Below are positions 22,742 to 53,166 of a stretch of DNA of 64,000 nucleotides, piece by piece. The stretch is taken from the sequence record OV754623. One strand, given 5' to 3'. Numbering within the stretch: the first letter of the stretch is position 1; each line of letters opens with the position of its first letter. The stretch comes from Escherichia phage UGJNEcP1. The translations under genes and the position numbers were made by a program. The notes beneath the pieces are model-generated. The model was not told the origin of the DNA. It saw only the letters and a program-made list of their open reading frames with translations, and did not search any database.

Positions 22742-24955
22742 TTATTTGGCCGCTTCCACGGCCTTCATGAATTTAACGATTTGAGCGACCTGTTCTTTTG
22801 AAAGAGTACCACGTCGTCCCATGTATTCTGACACAATATGATAATTGGTTTCAAATTCAATAACCATTTTATCATCATTATCGTAAGCATTATCTTTAAG
22901 CTTATCGAAAATTTTAGCACACAATTCTAACTTCCTGTTCAGGTCTGTATTAGTAGCACCTGCGAATCGATTCCATCCCCAGCGATTATTTACTGTTGAG
23001 AGTTTTGCAAAGTCTTTACTGATTTCTTTGTTCTTAGAGCTAAAATACTTACTAAGGAAGTTAAGCTCTTCATTACGAGTAATATGATTCAAATAAGGCT
23101 GTGCTCTACGACTTGGTGATACATACTCATCATAATCTACTTTATCGATTAGCATAATATAGTCATTAATTGATTTTTCAAACAAACATTCTACTTCACC
23201 AAGTTTACGAACTTTCTTAGCAATCTGTGGGCGAACTACAGTGAACTCTTTAATACCTGACAAATCGGCAATACGAGTCAAGAAATTAGAATCATAGTTC
23301 AACCAACCTTTATCTGCGTCAAGACATTCAGCGTTAGAACGATTACGAATTACAACATAACCTTGAATCTCATCAGCTTTACCGGCCGGAATAAAGAGAT
23401 CTTCTGATACCCAAACATCGTTTTCATTCTTAAAGAACCGATGAGCACTCGGCGATTTAGGACGAGGCTGCGATGAACGTTCTTTAACTTCAATCCACGG
23501 TTTAACTAATGCAAGAATTTCAGATGTCTTATAAAATTTAAGGCTATCACCAGCGAAAATAACCTTTAATCGTTCCAGAAGTTTCATTGCAACTTCATCT
23601 TCCGGGTTAATGAATAATACGCTACTACCCCATCCGGAAGGAACCTTATCAACGAGTGTTGATGCATCGGTGGAAGTCAAAGCATCGTTCAGAGCACGCA
23701 TCATTGGTACGCGGCCTTTCACATCGTCAATAACGATATCAATATGCTTACGACTAATACCTAGCAGGCTATTAATTGAAATAGTTGCAGACGAGCTTCC
23801 GCTTTCACGAATACGACGAAGTCGTGGGTCTGAAACGATATCATATACAACGCCAAGGTTGCACCATTCAGGTCCCATTTTAAAACGTTTGTACAACTCA
23901 GAATAAGTTAGTTGTTCTTTAGAGTATTTCAGTGATTCAATATTAGAACCGGCTTTTTCCATATATTTACGAGCAGAGTAACCAAGAGAATCGATTTCAC
24001 GGAATACATGACGTGGATATTCACAATCAATCCATTTCTTAGAATCTTCAGCAAATAATTTTGCATCGATTTCTGCAACACGTTTATGGATATTTGCTAC
24101 TGTACGTTTATCAAATGACAATGCTTCACGAGACGGGGCTACATCTAGTTCACCCATAGGGAATTTAATATAAGCTGTAGTGCATCGCGTCATCATCCAT
24201 GTTTGTTCTTTAATAACACTTCCGATTGGATATACAATACCGCCATAAACAGCCATGATATTACCACGTTCACCCCATGGAGCTTCCTTGGCCAAATATA
24301 CATCGTCAAATTCAGGAAAGTATTTAATATCTTTAACACCGCGAACTTCTGCAATATCACCTAGAGGACGCATAACATATGCAATTTCAGATGCGAACTT
24401 TTCAAAATCTTCTGGGTTAACAGGTACAACTACTTCTACACCCGTACGGTCATCAGGACCCATCTTATCTACAAAGGTTGGCTTAATCTGTGGACCACTG
24501 TCATCTTGGTAGATTACGTAACCACGAACTTCACCGTTGTGATAAGACGTAAGGTTAAACGTATCAGTATATGCTAGCGGAGCTTTAGAGCCGAGTCCGA
24601 ATCCACCAATGAAATCGTTACTCGATGTTTTAGTTGAAGCAAAATATGAGTTATAGATTCCTGGCTCTTCGTCATTACCTCGAATGGTGAAATCACTCAT
24701 ACCAGGACCAAAGTCTCGAACTACAAAACGTGGGTCTAAACGACCTGGTGCCTGAACAATAAACTTATCAGTGCAACCATTAAGAATTTGTCCATCGATA
24801 CAGTTTGTGATTAATTCACGTACACAAGCCAATTCTTTGTTTGTATAAAGGTCATTAGACAAAATCTTATAAACTTTGCTATTGCCTTGAATAGTAAATG
24901 CTGTGCTCTTACCGCCTGAACCAATAATCGTTTCTTTAGCCGTTTCAATAATCAT
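22742..24955 (-). CDS. rIIA: rIIA protein
   Basis: 737 aa (T4 rIIA 725 aa); synteny directly upstream of rIIB. Confidence 0.95.
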   Translation of the reverse strand: MIIETAKETIIGSGGKSTAFTIQGNSKVYKILSNDLYTNKELACVRELITNCIDGQILNGCTDKFIVQAPGRLDPRFVVRDFGPGMSDFTIRGNDEEPGIYNSYFASTKTSSNDFIGGFGLGSKAPLAYTDTFNLTSYHNGEVRGYVIYQDDSGPQIKPTFVDKMGPDDRTGVEVVVPVNPEDFEKFASEIAYVMRPLGDIAEVRGVKDIKYFPEFDDVYLAKEAPWGERGNIMAVYGGIVYPIGSVIKEQTWMMTRCTTAYIKFPMGELDVAPSREALSFDKRTVANIHKRVAEIDAKLFAEDSKKWIDCEYPRHVFREIDSLGYSARKYMEKAGSNIESLKYSKEQLTYSELYKRFKMGPEWCNLGVVYDIVSDPRLRRIRESGSSSATISINSLLGISRKHIDIVIDDVKGRVPMMRALNDALTSTDASTLVDKVPSGWGSSVLFINPEDEVAMKLLERLKVIFAGDSLKFYKTSEILALVKPWIEVKERSSQPRPKSPSAHRFFKNENDVWVSEDLFIPAGKADEIQGYVVIRNRSNAECLDADKGWLNYDSNFLTRIADLSGIKEFTVVRPQIAKKVRKLGEVECLFEKSINDYIMLIDKVDYDEYVSPSRRAQPYLNHITRNEELNFLSKYFSSKNKEISKDFAKLSTVNNRWGWNRFAGATNTDLNRKLELCAKIFDKLKDNAYDNDDKMVIEFETNYHIVSEYMGRRGTLSKEQVAQIVKFMKAVEAAK

Positions 24956-24967
24956 ATTTTTCTCTCA

Positions 24968-25168
24968 TCACAAGTTACGTTTAAAAATTTCTGCCACTTC
25001 GAGAAGTTCTTCTTTAGTAGCTGTATCGGTTTGTATTTTATATCGAATTTCTTTAAAGCGTTCTTTAAAGGACTCTGCTGACTCGATATCAAAAAATCTT
25101 TGGATAAGCCGGAATTCCCGGAGCACTGCTTTATCAAAAAGTTCCAAGTCCACGTTATATGTTCTCAT
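24968..25168 (-). CDS. hypothetical small protein (rIIA.1 position)
   Basis: 66-aa ORF immediately upstream of rIIA. Confidence 0.5.
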   Translation of the reverse strand: MRTYNVDLELFDKAVLREFRLIQRFFDIESAESFKERFKEIRYKIQTDTATKEELLEVAEIFKRNL

Positions 25169-25260
25169 AATATTCTCTTCAGTAGATTCCTAGGGCACTA
25201 TTACTAAAGACCATATAATCTATCATCTTATGTGTAATAGTGCCTCAGGCTATTCAGGAT

Positions 25261-26361
25261 TTACGCTGTGAAGATTTTATCCCACATCGCAACAACTGCA
25301 TCTCGGTTATACTTCTTCCATACTGCTTCAGCACGTTTAACTCGAGCTTCGTATGTGTCAGTGAATTCTAATACAGCTTTTGTGTAAAGCGCAACTACTT
25401 CTTTCTTAGGAGTAGAGGAATCAATTTCTACACGCACAGTATCTGGGTCGTATTCGAATGTCGCATGAGGATAATCCTTAAAAACTAACTGGATTACAGG
25501 GACACCTTTAGAGATGGCTTCAATAGAACTATTCTCTACAGTACCTGTGTCAGGACACGTATTAATAAGTGCTTTAGCTGTTTTAAGACGTTCCATAATT
25601 TCACTGTGTGGAGCATCAATAATAACAGGATATTTAGCTGGTGGCGCCCATTTGCTTGGACAGTATCCTGCACCATTTTCGCCTAGTGCTTTAATCGCTT
25701 CAAGAGCAACATCAGTACGACGCATTTTAGTGTCATAACGTTGTGCACTAATAATCAGATCCGTCGCCGGAAGAACTTCTGGCTTTTCAGTCAAACAAAT
25801 AACCGGATAATCTTCGGCTTCAAACAACGGATTTGCTCGCCAATAATCATAATCAATTTTGTCAGTCAGACCTGAAGTCATATAACAATATTTGCGTTCA
25901 AATTCACGGAAGGCTTTAGTAGGAGCATAACTCTTACCACCATTCTTATGAATTTGAATAGTCTGGTCCCAAATTTGAACAATGCCACGAGATACCGGTT
26001 CAAATGGTGTTGCCATAAAATTCTTATGAACTTTAGAGAGACCTGCGTCTTTAATTGCCTGAACGGTTAGTTTAGTCGGTTCCATAGTAACAACAAAATC
26101 GTATTCATGGATGCCGGCTAGTTCAACAATCTTACGAGCCATAGTATAACTCATACCTAGACTGAATTTAGTCAGATGACCAACAGGATGATGATTAACT
26201 TTCCAATCACCAAATGTGTCATTATCAAAACCGATATAATCAATATCAGCACCGATGGACACAAGATATTTCAACACGTTCAAATGAACCGCTTCAAGAC
26301 CACCTTGTACACGGTCAGGATTAAATGGGACTGCACGAGATGGGATAAACATAACTTTCAT
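25261..26361 (-). CDS. putative GT4-like GT-B glycosyltransferase; candidate DNA sugar transferase
   Basis: 366 aa; N-terminal RVQGGLEAVHLNVLKYLVSIG resembles the GT4 GG.E..V..L...L...G motif; C-terminal TGTVENSSIEAISKGVPVIQ resembles the GT4 EGFG...EAMA.G.PVI donor-binding motif. Confidence 0.65.
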   Translation of the reverse strand: MKVMFIPSRAVPFNPDRVQGGLEAVHLNVLKYLVSIGADIDYIGFDNDTFGDWKVNHHPVGHLTKFSLGMSYTMARKIVELAGIHEYDFVVTMEPTKLTVQAIKDAGLSKVHKNFMATPFEPVSRGIVQIWDQTIQIHKNGGKSYAPTKAFREFERKYCYMTSGLTDKIDYDYWRANPLFEAEDYPVICLTEKPEVLPATDLIISAQRYDTKMRRTDVALEAIKALGENGAGYCPSKWAPPAKYPVIIDAPHSEIMERLKTAKALINTCPDTGTVENSSIEAISKGVPVIQLVFKDYPHATFEYDPDTVRVEIDSSTPKKEVVALYTKAVLEFTDTYEARVKRAEAVWKKYNRDAVVAMWDKIFTA

Positions 26362-26387: not shown

Positions 26388-26405
26388 AAGCTCCCGAAGG
26401 AGCTT
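26388..26405 (-). terminator. UUCG-tetraloop hairpin at the 3' end of gene 39
   Basis: minus strand AAGCUCC-UUCG-GGAGCUU overlapping the gene 39 stop. Confidence 0.4.
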
Positions 26406-28221
26406 AGGACATCCATTCTTTACGAAGTTCTGAATCATCACCCATCAACATTTCAAAGAGTTCTTTCCAATTTTCAGGAAGTTTAACTACGTCGTACACA
26501 GGGTTCTGAATCATTTCACGATATTCTGACTTTTCAAGGGAGCCTAATCCCTTGATGTATCTAATACTATGCTTAGGCAGTGTATCTTTAACTTCTTCAT
26601 ACTCAGCTACAGTATAAAACCATTTTTGAGTTTTGCCAATTTGTGCAATAATTACAGGCGTTTTAACAAAACGAATACGTCCTTGTTCAAACAATTCAGG
26701 CCAATTACTAAAGAAAGCAAGCAAAGCCGGATAGATACTTCCAAGACCGTCGTGATCTGCATCGGTCATAATTGCAATATTACGATAGTTCGTATTCTCT
26801 GCCTTTTCACCAAGAATAAGACCTGTGATAGCACAGATATCGAAGAGCTCTTTGTTCTTCATCATATCGGCATATGACATACCCCAGCTATTCATCACCT
26901 TACCACGTAATGGGAATCCACCGTGTAGTTCACGGTCACGAACATCAATGAGATAACCAATTGCCGAATCACCTTCTGTTAAAAACAATGTTGTATCTGC
27001 ATCTTTACCGCATTGGTTAGCTTTAATATGCTTATGAACCTTAGCTTTAGTTGCCTTTTTAGCTGCTTTAGTTTCTGCAGCCTTTTCTGCCGCCAATTTA
27101 CGAGCTAATGCTGCTTCAACAATAGGCATAATCAAGGCTTCGTTTTTAAGAAGTGCCTGAGCAATTTTCTTAGCATCTAATTGGATATGATTACGAATAT
27201 CACCGTACGTTGACGTTAAACGCTCTTTAGTCTGAGAATCAAAACGCATGTTGCTCATGTCTCTAATAAACATCAACATTGTGAGACATTCTTTAACACG
27301 AGCTTTAGTGACTTCAATACCCTTATATTTCTTTTTAATACCTGGCAAAAGATGTTCACAGATATCATCCATTACACATTCAACATGATGACCACCATTT
27401 TTAGTATGGATGTTATTCACATAAGTTAAATGACGGAAGCCATCTGGTGATGTTGTGAATGCTATAGAAACTTTATCATTTTCTTGAATGATGTTATCTT
27501 CACCAAATTGTTTAGCAAATCGTTTAAAATTACCATCAACCTTTTTACCATTAAATGTGAACTTGATATCAGGATAAACGACTGCCAATGTTTGAAGTCG
27601 GTCTAAAGTAATATCTAAATAAATTTGAGATAAATTGTGCTCTTCAAACGAAGAGAAATCAGGAGTGAAGATTACTTTAGTGCCTTTACCTTTAGATTTC
27701 TTAGAAGACCATGATTTGTTTTCCATTCCATTTGAACAGTTAACAGTGATTTCATTTTCGCCATCTGACGTAATGCCTGTAAACAACGTAGAGAAGATAT
27801 TAGTTAAACTACTCCCGACGCCATTCATACCACCAGTCTTGCGTTCAGAGTCATCACCAAAGTTACCACCGGCCTTTGGAATAGTCCAGGCTGCTACAGG
27901 CCCAGGAATTTGTTCACCTGTTTGGTCGGTAACTAAACCTTGAGGAATACCACGTCCGTTATCTTCCACCGAAACTTGATTATTTTTAATTTGCACATCA
28001 ATTTTATTTGCAAACTTAAATGATGTACGAATAGCTTCATCAACCGAGTTGTCAATAATCTCATCGATTAATTTAACCAGACCAGGAACATATTCAACTT
28101 GTTGATATTTACCAAACAAAAAACGCTCATGTGCTTCTTTAGCTGAAGAACCAATATACATACCACTGCGTTTCTTAATATGTTCTACATCCGACAATAC
28201 CTTAATTTCATTTTTAATCAT
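26404..28221 (-). CDS. 39: DNA topoisomerase II large subunit gp39, unsplit (GyrB-like, includes the T4 gene 60 portion)
   Basis: 605 aa single ORF with GHKL ATPase and TOPRIM regions; T4 splits this into 39 and 60. Confidence 0.9.
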   Translation of the reverse strand: MIKNEIKVLSDVEHIKKRSGMYIGSSAKEAHERFLFGKYQQVEYVPGLVKLIDEIIDNSVDEAIRTSFKFANKIDVQIKNNQVSVEDNGRGIPQGLVTDQTGEQIPGPVAAWTIPKAGGNFGDDSERKTGGMNGVGSSLTNIFSTLFTGITSDGENEITVNCSNGMENKSWSSKKSKGKGTKVIFTPDFSSFEEHNLSQIYLDITLDRLQTLAVVYPDIKFTFNGKKVDGNFKRFAKQFGEDNIIQENDKVSIAFTTSPDGFRHLTYVNNIHTKNGGHHVECVMDDICEHLLPGIKKKYKGIEVTKARVKECLTMLMFIRDMSNMRFDSQTKERLTSTYGDIRNHIQLDAKKIAQALLKNEALIMPIVEAALARKLAAEKAAETKAAKKATKAKVHKHIKANQCGKDADTTLFLTEGDSAIGYLIDVRDRELHGGFPLRGKVMNSWGMSYADMMKNKELFDICAITGLILGEKAENTNYRNIAIMTDADHDGLGSIYPALLAFFSNWPELFEQGRIRFVKTPVIIAQIGKTQKWFYTVAEYEEVKDTLPKHSIRYIKGLGSLEKSEYREMIQNPVYDVVKLPENWKELFEMLMGDDSELRKEWMS

Positions 28222-28271: not shown

Positions 28272-28285
28272 AGGGCCGAAGCCCT
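28272..28285 (-). terminator. UUCG-tetraloop hairpin terminator
   Basis: minus strand AGGGC-UUCG-GCCCU followed by UUUUUGCUUUAG. Confidence 0.5.
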
Positions 28286-28728
28286 TATTTAAATTTAATT
28301 TTCTGAAGTGCATCAATTGCAGCTAAACGCCCTTGTTCACTTTTAACTGTAATGACCACATCGCCTGATACGATCACCGAACCATCAACAAATTCTATAG
28401 AGCCTTTTTTGAAATCGACAGCTGTATCTGGTTCCGGAACTTCTTCAAAGAATTTAAATTCTGCACCATAAATCAGAATATCACCTTGCATACTAATGAT
28501 TGTACGTCTAGGTCCATCGGTTTCAGCGGCAATCATTGAAACACCATAACCAATCATCTCTTCTACAATAAAATCTCTTGATAATAAAACTGTATGCAGA
28601 GTAGTGTTAAGACGTTTACCAGTTGTATTAAGAATTCTCAAGAAATTATCTTCTTGACCTTTGATAATACGATATTTCTTACCAACTTCAAAACCTTTAA
28701 AACCTTTAAAAGCCGTATTAAAAGCCAT
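28285..28728 (-). CDS. hypothetical protein (goF/39.x region)
   Basis: 147-aa ORF; no motif recognised. Confidence 0.45.
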   Translation of the reverse strand: MAFNTAFKGFKGFEVGKKYRIIKGQEDNFLRILNTTGKRLNTTLHTVLLSRDFIVEEMIGYGVSMIAAETDGPRRTIISMQGDILIYGAEFKFFEEVPEPDTAVDFKKGSIEFVDGSVIVSGDVVITVKSEQGRLAAIDALQKIKFK

Positions 28729-38020: not shown

Positions 38021-38557
38021 TCAGTAACCATTATCCTGACGTTCAAAGTTGTGTTGGTTTTTCAAGTAGTAAAGTTTAAAGATTTCTTCTGCAGTGAGTC
38101 CAAGACCCTGGAACATATTCAGAACAAAGTGGAGGATATCAATCATTTCAAATTTAATTTCAAGCTGGTCTTCAGGAGACAGTTCATCGATACGACGATT
38201 TCGATATTCAGCATGTTGTGCTTTCCAAGGCTTCCATACAGAGCTAGCGGCTTTTTCACCATTGCTCATACCACCGAGTGAAGTCAGCAGTTCACGGAAT
38301 TCATCATCAATATAATCTTTCTGATTACGCAGCCAATCAACAACATCACCAGCAGTGGCCAATTCATCAGGATGTTTGTTATGTTCAGGCTTGTCATTTG
38401 CCAGACGAACCTGTAAAGATTTCTGCATATCAAGCATTACCTGCAGTGGGTCTTTATCTTCGTGAATCAGAGCATTAAAATAAGCTTCTTCCGCTTTATC
38501 AACACCAGAAATAAGTTGTGAACATTCGTTAAAGTGTGCCATTATTTTTCCTTTCAA
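38021..38557 (-). CDS. 56: dCTPase/dUTPase gp56 candidate (all-alpha NTP pyrophosphatase)
   Basis: 178 aa (T4 gp56 171 aa); acidic E..E....E..D-like pattern; synteny between soc and 61. Confidence 0.55.
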   Translation of the reverse strand: MKGKIMAHFNECSQLISGVDKAEEAYFNALIHEDKDPLQVMLDMQKSLQVRLANDKPEHNKHPDELATAGDVVDWLRNQKDYIDDEFRELLTSLGGMSNGEKAASSVWKPWKAQHAEYRNRRIDELSPEDQLEIKFEMIDILHFVLNMFQGLGLTAEEIFKLYYLKNQHNFERQDNGY

Positions 38558-46615: not shown

Positions 46616-47164
46616 TTAACGAGCCCATTTAATGATTTCTGTAATCAAATTATTACGTTCGCTTGCATTAAATCCTATAACTTTGTTAGAACCATCATGA
46701 TTAAGTAATTGATACGTTTGGATTTTGTTATGAATTGCAAACTCTTCAAAATGTGAAATGACTGTATTAAAACCGAATGAAGACAAAGTAATAAGGTCGT
46801 CTTCAAAACTTTCAGTCATTTCGTTACGTGTTAAAATAATTGTGAACACATCATGGTTTTGGCAAAGACGAACATAATCCTGTTCATAAACGTCAAGAAC
46901 CGAGTCCGCATCTTGTCGAATACGTCCATAAACCCAGTTACTAATATATCCACGGTCTAATAGATAAATCTTAGTAGGGTCTAAATAATTCAACATCGTT
47001 TCGAAACAGCCAACTTCATTTCGAGACTTAACATCGAAACGCCCATCAACTGTTCGTTTAGGGAAATCAATCTTTACATATCTTTCACTAATTTCCATTA
47101 TATCATTAATGAAAGTTGTTTTACCAGCATTATCCGGCCCGTCTACTAAAATAATTTTAGCCAT
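46616..47164 (-). CDS. P-loop kinase (thymidylate/deoxynucleoside-kinase-like fold)
   Basis: 182 aa; Walker A GPDNAGKTT and downstream LLDRGY (DR motif); occupies part of the T4 beta-gt slot. Confidence 0.6.
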   Translation of the reverse strand: MAKIILVDGPDNAGKTTFINDIMEISERYVKIDFPKRTVDGRFDVKSRNEVGCFETMLNYLDPTKIYLLDRGYISNWVYGRIRQDADSVLDVYEQDYVRLCQNHDVFTIILTRNEMTESFEDDLITLSSFGFNTVISHFEEFAIHNKIQTYQLLNHDGSNKVIGFNASERNNLITEIIKWAR

Positions 47165-47165
47165 T

Positions 47166-48065
47166 TTATTCCTCGATTACGACATCTTCGTATTTAGGTA
47201 TATTATACGGTGAAGAAATTAAAGCATTAAAGTAGATGAACTCACCAAGACCTGGATGGAATACTTCTTCAGGATTTTCGAAATATTGAATCTTCGGACG
47301 TCCTTTAAGAATTTGATAGTACTCAGTTTTAGTTGGATTAAAAATTCGAATCAGCGCTTCTTCAGGATACTTATTTCTGTCGAAACTATTATTTGGATCA
47401 GTTATATAAAGCGGTTGACCTAATTGAATTGCGCATTCAACCACTTGTTCAAAACGATAGCATGGGTCACTAATTCGAAATGGATGAAAAATACCATCTA
47501 GATGAATAGGAGCCAAATCACCTACAAGACGCTGCATGACGGAAGGACGTATAACTTTCTGCGTTACGATAATCTTATTACCATCTGCACCTGCGTTAAC
47601 CAGCACTTCTTTTTGACGTTCATTCAACATAGTAGTTTGAAGTGAACGATTAACAGACAACATGTCGGTTTTTAAGAATTCATCAATATAAAAACGTGGT
47701 TTATTAGGGTCTGCAGTGATATTGAAATTGAATTCTACATCAAAAGCGCCGTCATATCCAGTGATATCTGTGATTAGAAAATCACAATCATAATAAGCAA
47801 TTAATGAATCAACCACAAATTCATTTTCAGACCAAAAATATTTACGAGTGTTATACGCGTTATCTTTATACCATAATGGAACAAACTTAAATTCTGGGAA
47901 AAGACGTTCACATTCTTTAATATCAGATGCATTACGTGGATATGTAATCACATCACCCGGATTAGCACGGTGCAAATGAAGTTGGAAGTTGCCATCCTTA
48001 AGGATAGCATACTGTCCAGTTTCATAAGACCGCATACTCAAGATAGGTACGCGGAAAATAGCCAT
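47166..48065 (-). CDS. hypothetical protein in the beta-gt slot (candidate transferase)
   Basis: 299 aa; no confident motif; positional replacement of T4 beta-glucosyltransferase; stop/start abutting neighbours. Confidence 0.5.
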   Translation of the reverse strand: MAIFRVPILSMRSYETGQYAILKDGNFQLHLHRANPGDVITYPRNASDIKECERLFPEFKFVPLWYKDNAYNTRKYFWSENEFVVDSLIAYYDCDFLITDITGYDGAFDVEFNFNITADPNKPRFYIDEFLKTDMLSVNRSLQTTMLNERQKEVLVNAGADGNKIIVTQKVIRPSVMQRLVGDLAPIHLDGIFHPFRISDPCYRFEQVVECAIQLGQPLYITDPNNSFDRNKYPEEALIRIFNPTKTEYYQILKGRPKIQYFENPEEVFHPGLGEFIYFNALISSPYNIPKYEDVVIEE

Positions 48066-48781
48066 TAGTCAAGGAATCCTTTAACATAATCAAAATCACG
48101 TTCAAACACATGGGCACTTACCATGGTATGAGTATAATCACCAACTTCTACACCACATTCGTTAGCGATATAATGAAGTAATTTTCCTTGGAGATAAAAA
48201 TCCAACTGCATAACAACAGCACAGTTCTGGGAACGCATATGACAGTGGGTATAAAGCTTACCATCACGAATATAATAAGTCACTGAGTCAGTACATGGAT
48301 ATTCAAGCGTTTCGTCCGAATCAAGCAAAGCCTGATCAGAACTTTCTAGAATTTGGAACACAACTCTTCGGGAGTTAGGCTTCTCTTTAAGTTCTTTTAG
48401 AAGAGCTGGTAATTGAGCCGCAATGCGAGGGCCATAGAAAGTGTTGAAGTTCGCCGGCAAAACATCTGATTTTGGTTTAGAAATAAATTTAGCGACATTA
48501 GGATATGCCTTAAACGCTTCTTCTGCGTTGGTACCACCAGAAATCATAAACTTCCAGAAGTCTTCGGCATATTCATAAGAGATGCGGTTAATACGTGGGT
48601 CGGTCATTTTGAATGATGATGGAGTGTCAACAACCACTGTCATAGACCCAATTTCATTACAACGTCCAATACGAGAATCAGTTACGAATTCCGGGTTTTC
48701 TAAAATTTCACGATTGACTGCTTTAAATGCGGCTTGAAAATCTGCGGCTTTGATATATTTCATTGTGTTATGTTTTCCCAT
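48065..48781 (-). CDS. 42: thymidylate-synthase-fold pyrimidine C5-modifying enzyme, probable dCMP hydroxymethylase gp42
   Basis: 238 aa; YPCTDSVTYYIRDGKLYTHCHMRSQN has the catalytic-Cys and R/S motifs of the TS/dCMP-hydroxymethylase fold; synteny. Confidence 0.65.
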   Translation of the reverse strand: MGKHNTMKYIKAADFQAAFKAVNREILENPEFVTDSRIGRCNEIGSMTVVVDTPSSFKMTDPRINRISYEYAEDFWKFMISGGTNAEEAFKAYPNVAKFISKPKSDVLPANFNTFYGPRIAAQLPALLKELKEKPNSRRVVFQILESSDQALLDSDETLEYPCTDSVTYYIRDGKLYTHCHMRSQNCAVVMQLDFYLQGKLLHYIANECGVEVGDYTHTMVSAHVFERDFDYVKGFLD

Positions 48782-48823
48782 GTTTACCTCAATACAATTT
48801 ATTATATACTCAATTCGTAAAGC

Positions 48824-49063
48824 TTATTTGAATTTCTTGACAATGTTGATATAACGTAAAGCTTCAGCATCGATACTTCCAAGAACACTATGAAGAAATG
48901 CATCAGCGTAATATTCTAGTTGAACAGGTTCTTTAATCACTTTAGCCGCTTTAGTTTCAAACAGGCCCATCAGGGCCTTTTTAAGAATTTGTTCGTTAGT
49001 GTTCAGTTTAATAGTCAAAATCTCTTCGTTAAGTTGGTGGTTAAAAGTTTTTCTAGAAATCAT
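48824..49063 (-). CDS. hypothetical small protein
   Basis: 79-aa ORF with ATGA-type overlap with the upstream gene. Confidence 0.45.
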   Translation of the reverse strand: MISRKTFNHQLNEEILTIKLNTNEQILKKALMGLFETKAAKVIKEPVQLEYYADAFLHSVLGSIDAEALRYINIVKKFK

Positions 49064-50220
49064 TCCGGGTACCTCAAAGCGTCATCAGAGTTAGTTATAT
49101 CAATAATAGATATAGAGTTTTCTGCTAACCCGTTTTTAGATAATTGACGTTTATAATATCTTTCACAATATGTACACGTCGTCCCGCAGATTTCATTAGC
49201 ACAATCGAAATCTGGATGTCTGAACCACCTTTTTTCTAAAAAGCCATCTAACAAAGAGGTTTCAATATTTACTGTATGTGAAAACTCAGTTTCGTTTTCA
49301 AGAGTGAAAATAGTCTCTAAAGGCTTCCACAGTTCTAACAAATTACCTTCAAACTTTTCAGAAGCGTATGCTTCAAGAACTTTCAAAATGTAGTCTGTGC
49401 TACCTGTACGTCCTGAAACTTTGAATTGAGTGATACCAATATCATTATAAAGTTTCAAATCTTGAGGACGAACAAAACGAGTTCTCAACCAGTTAAATGG
49501 GTCTGTATCACGAGCTTTAATACAGTGCTGCATAGGATATCCGTTTAAGGATTTAGCATCATCGGCTGTAACATCAGTACTATGGAAAATATAGCAAGAG
49601 TCACGATAGCTACAATGTGTTGTATACCCTTTACCAGCATTAGAACAGAACTCATTTACAAGAACTTCAAATATTATATTGTTCTTATTGCAAAACTCTG
49701 CTGCACGCTTCAGGAAAGAAACTGAACGGTTCTTATGAATTCCACAGCAGACCTTTTTGATATTATATTGGTCATGCAAGTATTTGATTTGAGTTACAGC
49801 ATCGACATGTAGAATTGTTGAAACTTCAATCTCAATGTCTTTATTGACTTCACGAACAATTTCCATAACAACAGGGTTAGCGATAGTAATACGCCATACG
49901 CCTATTGACCAAAGATACTGAACATAATCCTGAATAGCTTTCTTCTTCCACTCAACTAGTTCTCTTTTTGAACCAGGATTTATCGTGTTGAGTGTATAGT
50001 TAAAGCAAATACCTAATTCGTTACAACGTTTAACGTAATCTTCTAACATCTTTTTGTCAACGTCAGGAAGCCTAAAATCAGGTCTGGCTGCTACAAAAGC
50101 CATTTCTCTTGTAGAGCCGTATACTTCATTTATCAAGCTATTAGGATAAGTTTTATTGAGCTCTACGATTTTATCAAGAAGAGCTAAATCAAAATTCGTT
50201 CCGATTTTAAAAGTATTCAT
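49060..50220 (-). CDS. U32-family (collagenase-like / Fe-S hydroxylase-like) enzyme candidate
   Basis: 386 aa; NYTLNTIN and VLVNEFCSNAGKGYTTHCSY resemble U32 TIM-barrel motifs (partial match to the E.F..G..C....G.C..S signature); C-terminal C-x4-C-x3-C-x2-C cluster. Confidence 0.45.
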   Translation of the reverse strand: MNTFKIGTNFDLALLDKIVELNKTYPNSLINEVYGSTREMAFVAARPDFRLPDVDKKMLEDYVKRCNELGICFNYTLNTINPGSKRELVEWKKKAIQDYVQYLWSIGVWRITIANPVVMEIVREVNKDIEIEVSTILHVDAVTQIKYLHDQYNIKKVCCGIHKNRSVSFLKRAAEFCNKNNIIFEVLVNEFCSNAGKGYTTHCSYRDSCYIFHSTDVTADDAKSLNGYPMQHCIKARDTDPFNWLRTRFVRPQDLKLYNDIGITQFKVSGRTGSTDYILKVLEAYASEKFEGNLLELWKPLETIFTLENETEFSHTVNIETSLLDGFLEKRWFRHPDFDCANEICGTTCTYCERYYKRQLSKNGLAENSISIIDITNSDDALRYPE

Positions 50221-50274
50221 TTTTTACATCTCGCGTTAATTGATGCGATGGTTTTTTTGCAGGTCTTACTTAAA

Positions 50275-50679
50275 TTATTGTAGATTCGGTTTATATGATT
50301 TAAATGTTTCGAATTCGCCTTTATTCATAAGAGCTTTGAATTCGTCAGGACGCATAGCTTTGTCGTCGATAATCCAATCATATACTGGTTTATGTGTTAG
50401 CAAATTATGGTACTTCAAGCCAATGTTTGCCAAGTTCTGAATCAGACTTGGGAGAATGTCAATTGCTATACGACCAGGACCTACTGACTTCATACCGCGA
50501 GCAGTGTAAAGCGTTATGGTATGCCCTGCATCATACAGGGCATTAATGGCAGACACCATTTCGACGTCTGGTTTGAAGTTCACGTAATCACGATTGTTAT
50601 TCCACTCTGTTATACAATCATCGACATCAAAACAAAGATTAAGCATGTTTTCTACACGGTGCATTAGATTCGTTCCCAT
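50275..50679 (-). CDS. HAD-superfamily phosphatase-like protein
   Basis: 134 aa; LCFDVDDCIT (DxD motif I), TLYTARG (motif II), IIDDK (motif IV). Confidence 0.55.
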   Translation of the reverse strand: MGTNLMHRVENMLNLCFDVDDCITEWNNNRDYVNFKPDVEMVSAINALYDAGHTITLYTARGMKSVGPGRIAIDILPSLIQNLANIGLKYHNLLTHKPVYDWIIDDKAMRPDEFKALMNKGEFETFKSYKPNLQ

Positions 50680-52349
50680 TGATGAGTGATATCGCCACCG
50701 ATTGGACGATAAGAAACACCAGTTTCTTTATCAGTTAGTACCCATTTACCAGGATTTTTTGTAATCAGAGTAGCCGTTACAGGCTCTGCTACGTCATAAC
50801 TAATAGAGCCGTCTTGAAGTACACGGCCCATGTTACGTAATTGCTTAGTCAGAAGTTCCATACCTTTATAATATGCGGCTACCGCTTTAAGTGGATTATT
50901 CTTGAAATAACCACCTAATGCAATCCAGATAATTGCCACCGCCAAATGATGATACTCGTTAAACGAACTCATCTTTCCATATTTGTAAATTAATGGATTG
51001 ATGTTAATAGTCACATTACAAGTTGTTTCATCAATAGTAAACTGTCCCCAGGTCGGATTAGCATTGAATTCATCATAACCTGAAACAGCATAAAGCACTT
51101 TAGCTTCATCGTACAATTTTGGCCCGTAAATCTTGGTTTCGCCAAAATATCCACGAGGGTCGATAAACTTGACTTCGCCGTTATCAGTAATCATAGTATT
51201 ACTGAAGTTCGGGTCACCGTGAATAACAGAGTACTGTCCCTGAGAACGGTTATGATAACGAATAAGGTGTTCTAAAGCTTGTTTCAGCATTGGCTTCAGA
51301 CGTCCAATCTTAGTGTAGTTCACGTGTGTGATTTTACCAAATGAATCAATCAATGGTTGAATGCTTTCACAACGATCAATAACTTTCGTATAGAATTCTT
51401 TAGTGAAATCACGACGAACAGTTTCAGGACTTACAAAATAAGTGTCTGTGCTGAATTTCAGTGCATCTAAAATTGCATCAACAATTTGTGGACGAGCAAG
51501 ACTTGATTTGGATTTAATATATTCAAATGCCGGCTTACCTTTAATGCGTTCCATTTCAAAGTTATTTTCATTAACAGAAACTAACTGAGGAACTGAATCT
51601 GATTTCACTTTAAGATACCATGAAATCTCATCTTTCTGAAGAGCTCGGCCCTGTTCGGTTAATGCGAATTTAGTTACAGTTTCTTCACCAATTTCAACTG
51701 CATTAAAACTACGATTAAGTTCACGAACTTCATGAGCCTTTTCAAGTTTAGGCATATCACCTAAATCAATTAGATTCATAAGCTCTGATTTATTGAATGC
51801 ACTCCCGTAAAGGAATTCTACAAAATCACGTCCTTTGCAATATTCGTGAATTTCCTCATCAGTAGAACCCATGTAGAATTCCCAGTCTTTGAACTGATAA
51901 ATTCCTACAACATTACCACCTGTTGAACCTACGTTAGTGATATTTTCACCGTCGAAATTATATCGACATTCGTCACCCTTAACATAGATTGCGTTAACAT
52001 TCCAAGACCATGAACCAAAATCAGGAATAATATCACACCAGTTAACAATTACGTTATGGCCGTCTAAATCTTTGTGTAATTTAGCAAGAGCATAAGCAGA
52101 ACCATACGCTTCATCAACTGTACGAATAGTCACATTGAACCCTTCTTGCTCACAATAAGCTCGAACAGTTTCAGCAAATTTTGAATGAACTACTACAATA
52201 ATTTCATCTGCGCCAAGGTCAGAATAAATTGTATACAAATTGCTCAGAATAGTGTCTTGTTTATAGTTAACAAGCACCTTAGGAATATGATGCGTTATTG
52301 GATACAAACGAGTTGCCAGTCCAGCACCAAGAATAACAGCTTTTTTCAT
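50664..52349 (-). CDS. bifunctional sugar-1-phosphate nucleotidyltransferase / APH-like sugar kinase
   Basis: 561 aa; N-terminal MKKAVILGAGLATRLYPITHHIPKVLV (nucleotidyltransferase G-loop); C-terminal VIHGDPNFSNTMI...FIDPRGYFGE (HGD...N and ID motifs of the aminoglycoside/choline-kinase fold). Confidence 0.75.
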   Translation of the reverse strand: MKKAVILGAGLATRLYPITHHIPKVLVNYKQDTILSNLYTIYSDLGADEIIVVVHSKFAETVRAYCEQEGFNVTIRTVDEAYGSAYALAKLHKDLDGHNVIVNWCDIIPDFGSWSWNVNAIYVKGDECRYNFDGENITNVGSTGGNVVGIYQFKDWEFYMGSTDEEIHEYCKGRDFVEFLYGSAFNKSELMNLIDLGDMPKLEKAHEVRELNRSFNAVEIGEETVTKFALTEQGRALQKDEISWYLKVKSDSVPQLVSVNENNFEMERIKGKPAFEYIKSKSSLARPQIVDAILDALKFSTDTYFVSPETVRRDFTKEFYTKVIDRCESIQPLIDSFGKITHVNYTKIGRLKPMLKQALEHLIRYHNRSQGQYSVIHGDPNFSNTMITDNGEVKFIDPRGYFGETKIYGPKLYDEAKVLYAVSGYDEFNANPTWGQFTIDETTCNVTININPLIYKYGKMSSFNEYHHLAVAIIWIALGGYFKNNPLKAVAAYYKGMELLTKQLRNMGRVLQDGSISYDVAEPVTATLITKNPGKWVLTDKETGVSYRPIGGDITHQWERI

Positions 52350-52390
52350 GTTGAAGTCCTCATTGGTAAGTAGGAGTATTGTACACTATT

Positions 52391-52534
52391 CTAGTTAAAG
52401 CATTCATACTTTGCTTGTAGTCCAATCATAATCCATCCGATTATAAGAGTCGGAATCATTACCGGAGCCGTTAAGCTCCAGTAGATAGTCATGACAAGCA
52501 TCAATAGTAAAAGTCCTATTGTTATTGCTTTCAT
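52391..52534 (-). CDS. small hydrophobic peptide
   Basis: 47-aa ORF MKAITIGLLLLMLVMTIYWSL...; ATGA overlap with the SIS gene stop; below track cutoff. Confidence 0.3.
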   Translation of the reverse strand: MKAITIGLLLLMLVMTIYWSLTAPVMIPTLIIGWIMIGLQAKYECFN

Positions 52535-53166
52535 TGTTCGCCTCGTAACATGGCACCTAGTGCACCGCCTGGATGGAACTTAAGGAAGTCATTAGAGGTA
52601 AATCCACGTTCAGACGAAAGGTTGATAGCAAACGTATCGATAAGCGCTAACAACAATGTAGTGGACATAGTCGGAGCCAGAGAATTCTCATCAACCTCTA
52701 CCGCGATGCCTGTACAGAAAGAGTAATCAAAAAGGGCTTCATTTTCTTGCGGAATGTCTGGGTTACAATGCAACAGAATCTGTTTGACGTTCGGTCGAAT
52801 CATTTTAAGATGCTTAGCCACGCCTATCATTTCTTCAGTTTTACCAGAACGACTAATATGAATCAACACATCATTAGGCGCAATGAATCCTGCGTCACCG
52901 TGAGAATAATGTCCAGTGTTCAAGTACATACTCGGGATACCGAGTGAAGCAAATGTCTCAGAAGCTTTAGTTGCAATATTAGCATTCTTACCAACACCTG
53001 TAATAATTACTCGGCTTTCATAATTACTAAGTCCAGGGCGTCGAAGAGTTTCTAGAATAGCATTATAACGAGCAGGGTTTTGACTAATTACTTTGGCCAT
53101 AGCGGCCAAAGAAGAAGCTTGTTTTATGATTGCGTCAATAGCGATAGTAATAGGAGTAGTTTTCAT
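52531..53166 (-). CDS. SIS-domain sugar-phosphate isomerase (arabinose-5-phosphate isomerase / GmhA-like)
   Basis: 211 aa; ITGVGKNANIA and HISRSGKTEE are canonical SIS phosphosugar-binding motifs; no CBS domains. Confidence 0.75.
   Translation of the reverse strand: MKTTPITIAIDAIIKQASSLAAMAKVISQNPARYNAILETLRRPGLSNYESRVIITGVGKNANIATKASETFASLGIPSMYLNTGHYSHGDAGFIAPNDVLIHISRSGKTEEMIGVAKHLKMIRPNVKQILLHCNPDIPQENEALFDYSFCTGIAVEVDENSLAPTMSTTLLLALIDTFAINLSSERGFTSNDFLKFHPGGALGAMLRGEQ

Follow-up and report, generated by a model that had tools for sequence, protein, structure and literature searches.

We identify the 366-aa protein encoded at positions 25261–26361 of a 64,000-nucleotide stretch of the Escherichia phage UGJNEcP1 genome (sequence record OV754623; the whole stretch is called the window below) as the Mosigvirus orthologue of RB69 gp3 and, most likely, a chain-extending second DNA arabinofuranosyltransferase. 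The protein is a soluble two-domain GT-B enzyme that binds a UDP-sugar, and its substrate is most likely phage DNA that has just been replicated. There it would move D-arabinofuranose from phage-made UDP-arabinofuranose to O3 of an α-arabinofuranose already present on the cytosine 5-hydroxyl, giving the disaccharide β-D-Araf-(1→3)-α-D-Araf-O5-cytosine of RB69-type DNA. An unrelated 299-aa transferase, encoded beside the 5-hydroxy-dCMP synthase, would most likely add the first arabinose. A preliminary description of this DNA, made from its letters and open reading frames, had picked out the same gene as the best candidate for the DNA sugar transferase and hmC as its acceptor; it needs correcting on three points, the base being 5-hydroxycytosine (5hoC), the sugar arabinofuranose and the enzyme probably the second transferase.

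The open reading frame layout and the T4 and RB69 records agree with the preliminary description in placing the gene between rIIA.1 and gene 39. The locus reads as follows.

22742–24955: rIIA.
24968–25168: rIIA.1 homologue.
25261–26361, minus strand: open reading frame with an ATG start for the 366-aa GT-B glycosyltransferase, orthologue of RB69 ORF003c/gp3.
26388–26405, minus strand: stem-loop with the core GCTCC-TTCG-GGAGC (TTCG tetraloop) and a T-rich run after it, from a consensus terminator scan and direct reading of the sequence.
26404–28221, minus strand: topoisomerase II large subunit of 605 aa, encoded without a split ('60plus39') as it is in RB69.

The equivalent locus runs rIIA–rIIA.1–60–60.1–mobA–39 in the T4 record and rIIA–rIIA.1–ORF003c–60plus39 in the RB69 record, so that the 366-aa gene occupies the same place between rIIA.1 and the fused 60plus39 as its RB69 counterpart. 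The earlier statement that it takes the position of gene 60 and mobA names the right junction, but comparison of the two gene orders indicates that gene 60 has not been replaced: the fused gene 39 includes its coding content, and what the rIIA.1/gene 39 junction holds in addition is the 366-aa gene. Because the topoisomerase subunit is unsplit, this locus has none of the T4 features here: no split of gene 60, no 50-nt translational bypass and no mobA remnant.

The 1551-bp region around the gene was compared with 153 phage records covering at least 80% of it: Escherichia phage UGJNEcP2 matches at 100% identity and about 150 further Mosigvirus (RB69-like) genomes at 95–99%. No sign of a recent foreign origin of the gene was seen, its GC content being 39.7% against 37.4% for the window. 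Scanning for sigma-70 promoters around the gene gave 8 sites against 11.0 ± 3.3 in shuffled controls, a consensus scan that is uninformative for a T4-type phage. The stem-loop at 26388–26405 follows directly on the gene 39 stop codon, lies 27–44 nt upstream of the transferase ATG and is succeeded by an AAGG ribosome-binding site before the transferase start; it is predicted from its sequence to be a terminator-like site, and a 'terminator' feature appears in this region of several related GenBank records. Downstream of the transferase, the 92-bp gap between its stop and the rIIA.1 start holds an 11-bp perfect inverted repeat (25194–25244; GGCACTATTAC ... GTAATAGTGCC) with a 29-nt AT-rich loop between the arms. 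Elsewhere the window differs from UGJNEcP2 by a 12-base shift within an RB69ORF005c-like open reading frame (about 28285–28728; 147 aa in the window, 143 aa as annotated in UGJNEcP2) and by one further base shift between 28.9 and 46.6 kb. A near-identical record also annotates a homing endonuclease gene at about 2288–2971 on the minus strand, flanked by a helicase loader gene (gene 59 type) and the gene for the late-transcription regulator.

Profile searches assign the 366-aa protein to no glycosyltransferase family, and its family assignment therefore rests on structure. Neither Pfam (at E ≤ 10) nor NCBIfam returned a single family for it, and 12 members of its family drew from Pfam sub-threshold matches of GT4 type only (GT4-conflict 0.0028, Glyco_trans_1_4 0.013, Glycos_transf_1 0.048), none reaching the curated threshold for CAZy GT4 or Pfam Glycos_transf_1, Glyco_trans_1_4 or Glyco_transf_4. 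HHpred profile–profile matches have been reported by others at E values of 1e-24 to 1e-27 (PMC6024577 Table 3). Residues 1–366 align with positions 1–366 of PHROG 8302, a profile of 'unknown function' (E 2e-222), and a profile search of PDB sequences found one entry pair, 9iqz/9ir0 (E 3.7e-196), labelled in the Foldseek library as 'phage HY126 glycosyltransferase' and the same 'with UDP' (released 2025-07-16). The window protein is 98% identical to this HY126 enzyme over its full length and 99.5% identical to RB69 ORF003c; the RB69 open reading frame next to rIIA, proposed for comparison in the preliminary description, is thus the same gene.

An AlphaFold model built from a 12-sequence alignment (pLDDT 92.5; it replaced a 6-sequence run with pLDDT 60) superimposes on 9iqz with a TM score of 0.97 at 1.3 Å and on the UDP complex 9ir0 with a TM score of 0.95. 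The model folds into two Rossmann-like domains, the cleft between which houses the nucleotide-sugar site, and it confirms the protein as a GT-B glycosyltransferase of GT4-like architecture; UDP binding by the 98%-identical HY126 protein is implied by the title of entry 9ir0. The preliminary description had staked its reading on a GT-B fold appearing in structure prediction, and that fold is what we find. Its claim of GT4-type GT-B motifs at both ends holds for the modelled fold and architecture but not for membership of a GT4 profile, such motifs being detectable by eye and by fold only: a Gly-Gly loop at 20–21, an R208/R214 pair and TGTVENSSIEAISKGVPV at 272–289. Within the last of these, E281 is invariant across the family and E276 nearly so, forming an E-x4-E motif; the canonical E-x7-E motif of the GT4 C-terminal domain appears not to be intact, position −8 from E281 being G273 (assigned by eye). 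The family-conserved residues G20, R208, R214, N267, T268, T274, E281, G286 and Q291 would fit the usual nucleotide-sugar site of GT-B enzymes. The closest structural neighbours are retaining enzymes that act on lipids, small molecules and polysaccharides.

The chemistry of the DNA identifies both base and sugar. RB69 DNA, analysed by MS/MS and NMR by Lee et al., carries β-D-Araf-(1→3)-α-D-Araf in an ether bond to 5-hydroxycytosine (PMC13326640), and the Mosigvirus phage NP has the mono-arabinosyl and di-arabinosyl cytidines in its DNA at 1:4, an earlier hmC assignment being called erroneous (Durham Collection, PMC13390438). Shewanella phage Thanatos is mono-arabinosylated and the DNA of Acinetobacter phage DLP3 tri-arabinosylated (PMC13326640). 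The modified nucleotide originates with RB69 gp48, which makes 5-hydroxy-dCMP (PMC13326640); He et al. are cited as having reconstituted 5-hydroxylation by the HY126 thymidylate-synthase-type enzyme, and the known 5-hydroxy-dCMP synthase depends on flavin and O2. The window carries the corresponding genes.

38021–38557 (maximal open reading frame), minus strand: dCTPase, gene 56 homologue, RB69 gp28 (annotated as nucleoside triphosphate pyrophosphohydrolase; PMC13326640 Table 1).
46616–47164, minus strand: thymidylate-kinase-like nucleotide kinase, RB69 gp45 orthologue (open reading frame; thymidylate kinase in a near-identical record; PMC13326640 Table 1).
47166–48065, minus strand: 299-aa putative glycosyltransferase, RB69 gp46:47 orthologue, in the T4 β-gt slot between uvsX/kinase and the gene-42 equivalent.
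48065–48781, minus strand: thymidylate-synthase-family 5-hydroxy-dCMP synthase, RB69 gp48 orthologue, at the T4 gene 42 position (Pfam Thymidylat_synt, E 2e-15).
48824–49063, minus strand: 79-aa open reading frame beside the U32 gene.
49060–50220, minus strand: Peptidase-U32-family protein, RB69 gp50 orthologue (Pfam Peptidase_U32, E 7e-11; weak UbiU match).
50275–50679, minus strand: open reading frame for a HAD-like phosphatase, RB69 gp51/HY126 AfhF analogue, putatively converting Araf-1,5-P2 to Araf-1-P (function per PMC13326640).
50664–52349, minus strand: bifunctional nucleotidyltransferase and kinase, RB69 gp52:53/HY126 AfhE analogue (Pfam NTP_transferase, E 8.5e-10; weak kinase-family matches).
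52531–53166, minus strand: arabinose-5-phosphate isomerase with a SIS domain, RB69 gp55 orthologue (Pfam SIS, E 1e-10; KpsF in a near-identical record).

In RB69, the gp52:53 (AfhE-type) enzyme makes UDP-arabinofuranose (PMC13326640) and the dCTPase gp28 clears unmodified dCTP from the pool (PMC13326640 Table 1). The 366-aa gene thus occurs together with a cluster for UDP-arabinose and 5-hydroxy-dCMP synthesis, and the distance of about 20 kb to this donor-synthesis cluster (46616–53166) had been given correctly. The hmC acceptor of T4-type enzymes has to be given up: the published chemistry puts arabinose on 5-hydroxycytosine in RB69-type DNA (PMC13326640, PMC13390438), and the product of the gene-42 equivalent matches the HY126 structures 9iqc/9ir2 over its whole length (E 8e-161). 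The two T4 glucosyltransferase slots, described earlier as lacking a T4-type gene, differ in what they hold. In the α-gt slot, between the gene 47 and gene 55 homologues (about 61.6–62.6 kb), lie four small hypothetical open reading frames of 57–107 aa, and no transferase-sized gene was found there; the β-gt slot is occupied after all, by the 299-aa putative glycosyltransferase, which is not of T4 type.

This 299-aa protein has no match in Pfam, NCBIfam or PDB sequences; it was also considered as a paralogue of the 366-aa protein, a relationship ruled out by BLASTP (E 2.0). Its RB69 orthologue gp46:47, whose split is a sequencing error in the RB69 record, has been assigned as a GT-B-like transferase through structure modelling (PMC13326640 Table 1), and the order proposed in the literature has gp46:47 act first, as the base-proximal transferase, and gp3 second (PMC13326640; PMC13390438). 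A tblastn search with the 299-aa protein found relatives in 348 phage records from more than 12 host genera, among them Escherichia, Acinetobacter, Klebsiella, Serratia, Enterobacter, Proteus, Yersinia, Edwardsiella, Erwinia, Pectobacterium and Providencia, and also in Shewanella phage Thanatos, and a ThyA-like gene adjoins the transferase gene in every record for which annotation was listed. The 299-aa protein is most likely the first, base-proximal α-arabinosyltransferase.

The gp3 family is rarer. Five clusters of it were found by a word-indexed search of 5.8 billion proteins and 11 by an exhaustive HMMER scan of 1.84 billion representative proteins, and tblastn with the 366-aa protein found 211 phage records, all Escherichia/Shigella Mosigvirus-type or Acinetobacter-type. 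Every genus that holds the gp3 family also holds the cluster transferase. In the preliminary description the 366-aa protein was 'the DNA sugar transferase'; a place in the DNA-sugar pathway stands, but not the definite article, a second putative glycosyltransferase being present and the more widespread of the two. Each Mosigvirus record has one gp3-family copy and each Acinetobacter-type record, among those listed, has two. The Acinetobacter phages DLP1 and DLP3 encode their two homologues (43% and 41% identity) within the arabinosylation cluster, where the genes adjoin the kinase, the cluster transferase and the ThyA-like gene. The two Acinetobacter paralogues are closer to each other (58% identity) than to the 366-aa protein (41–43%), so that the latter may be orthologous to either a 'second' or a 'third' transferase. 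Copy number follows the sugars on the DNA, with no copy in mono-arabinosylated Thanatos, one in RB69 and NP (mono- plus di-arabinosylated) and two in tri-arabinosylated DLP3, a series limited to the few phages with known sugar counts. The narrower distribution (211 records against 348 for the cluster transferase) and a copy number that rises with the count of sugars make gp3 most likely the second transferase.

Other accounts of the 366-aa protein are less likely. The preliminary description and, in 2018, Thomas et al. took it for the primary transferase, which would join the initial sugar to the modified cytosine itself. We consider this unlikely, given that at least 137 phage records, including mono-arabinosylated Thanatos, have the cluster transferase and the ThyA-like gene but no gp3 homologue, that the cluster transferase is universally syntenic with the 5-hydroxy-dCMP synthase, and that later structural work made gp46:47 a glycosyltransferase and proposed it as the first enzyme (PMC13326640). 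If the acceptor were not DNA at all but, for instance, a small molecule, a protein of the phage or a glycan of the host envelope, the link to DNA modification would be coincidental; this reading would agree with the lipid, small-molecule and polysaccharide substrates of the nearest structural neighbours and with the location of the Mosigvirus gene away from the cluster. We regard it as very improbable, because the Acinetobacter homologues are encoded within the arabinosylation cluster and are active on DNA in vitro, and because the family is confined to phages with the cluster and is small, with 11 representative clusters among 1.84 billion proteins.

DLP3 also provides the nearest biochemical evidence. 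From UDP-Araf, DLP3 gp76 and gp77 jointly add a third Araf to RB69 DNA in vitro; single DLP3 transferases had no activity on 5hoC DNA, gp76 and gp77 being required together (PMC13326640). A scheme of one enzyme for one sugar may for this reason be too simple, and the 366-aa protein might act only in complex with the 299-aa transferase, as a cooperative unit. Such an obligate partnership has about as little to recommend it as a primary transferase: the joint requirement in homologous enzymes speaks for it, but Mosigvirus has a single family member, encoded 20 kb from the other transferase, and the HY126 protein was crystallised alone with UDP. Outside He et al. 2026 (Nat Chem Biol) and Mahler et al. 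2025 (Cell Host Microbe), which our search did not include, we found no report of an activity or knockout of RB69 gp3 or the 366-aa protein; a deletion of an 'arabinosyltransferase Aat' in Bas46 is ascribed to Mahler et al. in a passage of PMC13216743 from which the identity of the gene is not evident. We infer that the 366-aa protein would make the second addition, that its substrate would be DNA rather than a nucleotide, and that it would form the β-(1→3) linkage.

The proposed order of two transferases has a mechanistic consequence. The product contains one α and one β linkage and both enzymes resemble retaining enzymes, so at least one of them must differ mechanistically from its fold neighbours; and since both presumably share one donor yet form opposite anomeric linkages, one should be inverting. 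Tentatively, and with the balance somewhat against it, the 366-aa protein could be an inverting β-(1→3)-arabinofuranosyltransferase on a retaining GT4-type scaffold, or the 299-aa enzyme could be the odd one out; the gp3 family would then merit a glycosyltransferase family of its own, for enzymes that extend DNA glycans.

A further gene of the cluster may bear on the origin of the modified base. The gene for the U32 protein (49060–50220) lies between the 5-hydroxy-dCMP synthase and sugar-activation genes. Wherever the gene occurs, in 221 records of Enterobacterales and Shewanella phages, its product is at least 80% identical, whereas the cluster transferase is much less conserved, at about 47–72% identity outside Mosigvirus-type records. 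The gene is absent from every Acinetobacter phage found, although the rest of the cluster is present. Cysteines occur at 177, 192, 203, 209 and 233 of the protein and, clustered at its C-terminal end, as C340-x4-C345-x3-C349-x2-C352. The U32-family proteins RlhA, TrhP and UbiU/UbiV are oxygen-independent, prephenate-dependent hydroxylases, and by analogy the phage protein may be a candidate anaerobic cytosine-5 hydroxylase. As the known 5-hydroxy-dCMP synthase needs flavin and O2, the U32 protein could supply an oxygen-free route to 5-hydroxycytosine, which, if true, would serve phages of facultative anaerobes. In Erwinia phage Virsaitis27 a chorismate mutase gene (Pfam CM_2, E 1.7e-11) stands between the U32 and ThyA-like genes; the 79-aa open reading frame at 48824–49063 showed no chorismate-mutase similarity in Pfam or in BLASTP against the Erwinia phage enzyme. 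Lee et al. cite pathways of rRNA and tRNA hydroxylation but draw no connection from these to the U32 gene, and mention neither U32, prephenate nor chorismate (PMC13326640).

The identity of the 366-aa gene is already known. Thomas et al. proposed RB69 ORF003c as an arabinosyltransferase in 2018 (PMC6024577), and its recognition in the preliminary description is an independent rediscovery; most database records nevertheless label the gene 'hypothetical protein'. It can now be named as a DNA arabinosyltransferase of gp3/ORF003c type with a probable role in the second step, and the 299-aa neighbour of the ThyA-like gene annotated as the probable first transferase. Against restriction enzymes, DNA glycosylases and type I CRISPR-Cas, these phages are protected by their arabinosylated cytosines, and the range of protection appears to change with the number of sugars (PMC13216743, PMC13326640). 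Assigning enzymes to sugars is useful for phage engineering and for making defined glycosylated DNA.

Among known systems, RB69 ORF003c/gp3 and the HY126 glycosyltransferase are the same gene, at the same rIIA.1/60plus39 position in RB69 and with the same fold in HY126 (TM 0.95–0.97 to 9iqz/9ir0); they differ from the window protein by few substitutions, and no functional difference is expected. DLP3 gp77 and gp76 are full-length members of the same family, at 43% and 41% identity, and use UDP-Araf on arabinosylated DNA, but they are tandem copies within the cluster that add a third sugar in β-1,5 linkage, whereas Mosigvirus has one copy 20 kb away and two sugars. The closest functional analogy to gp3 is the β-1,6-glucosyl-α-glucose transferase of T2 and T6 (ba-gt), which produces gentiobiosyl-hmC. 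The ba-gt of T-even phages is a second transferase, extending a sugar already on modified cytosine in DNA. It handles glucose on hmC where the Mosigvirus enzyme would handle arabinofuranose on 5hoC, and no sequence relationship between them was detected; ba-gt is mentioned in PMC6024577. The T4 α-GT (GT72, 1y6f) and β-GT (GT63) glucosylate the hydroxymethyl group of hmC directly. No sequence similarity of the 366-aa protein to T4 a-gt or b-gt was detectable, and among its structural neighbours α-GT (1y6f) ranks 36th and β-GT is absent from the top 60. Bacterial GT4-type enzymes (sucrose-phosphate synthase 6kih, BshA, PimA/PimB', WaaG and MshA) share 10–15% identity with the 366-aa protein; unlike any of these, gp3 would have as its acceptor a sugar borne on DNA.
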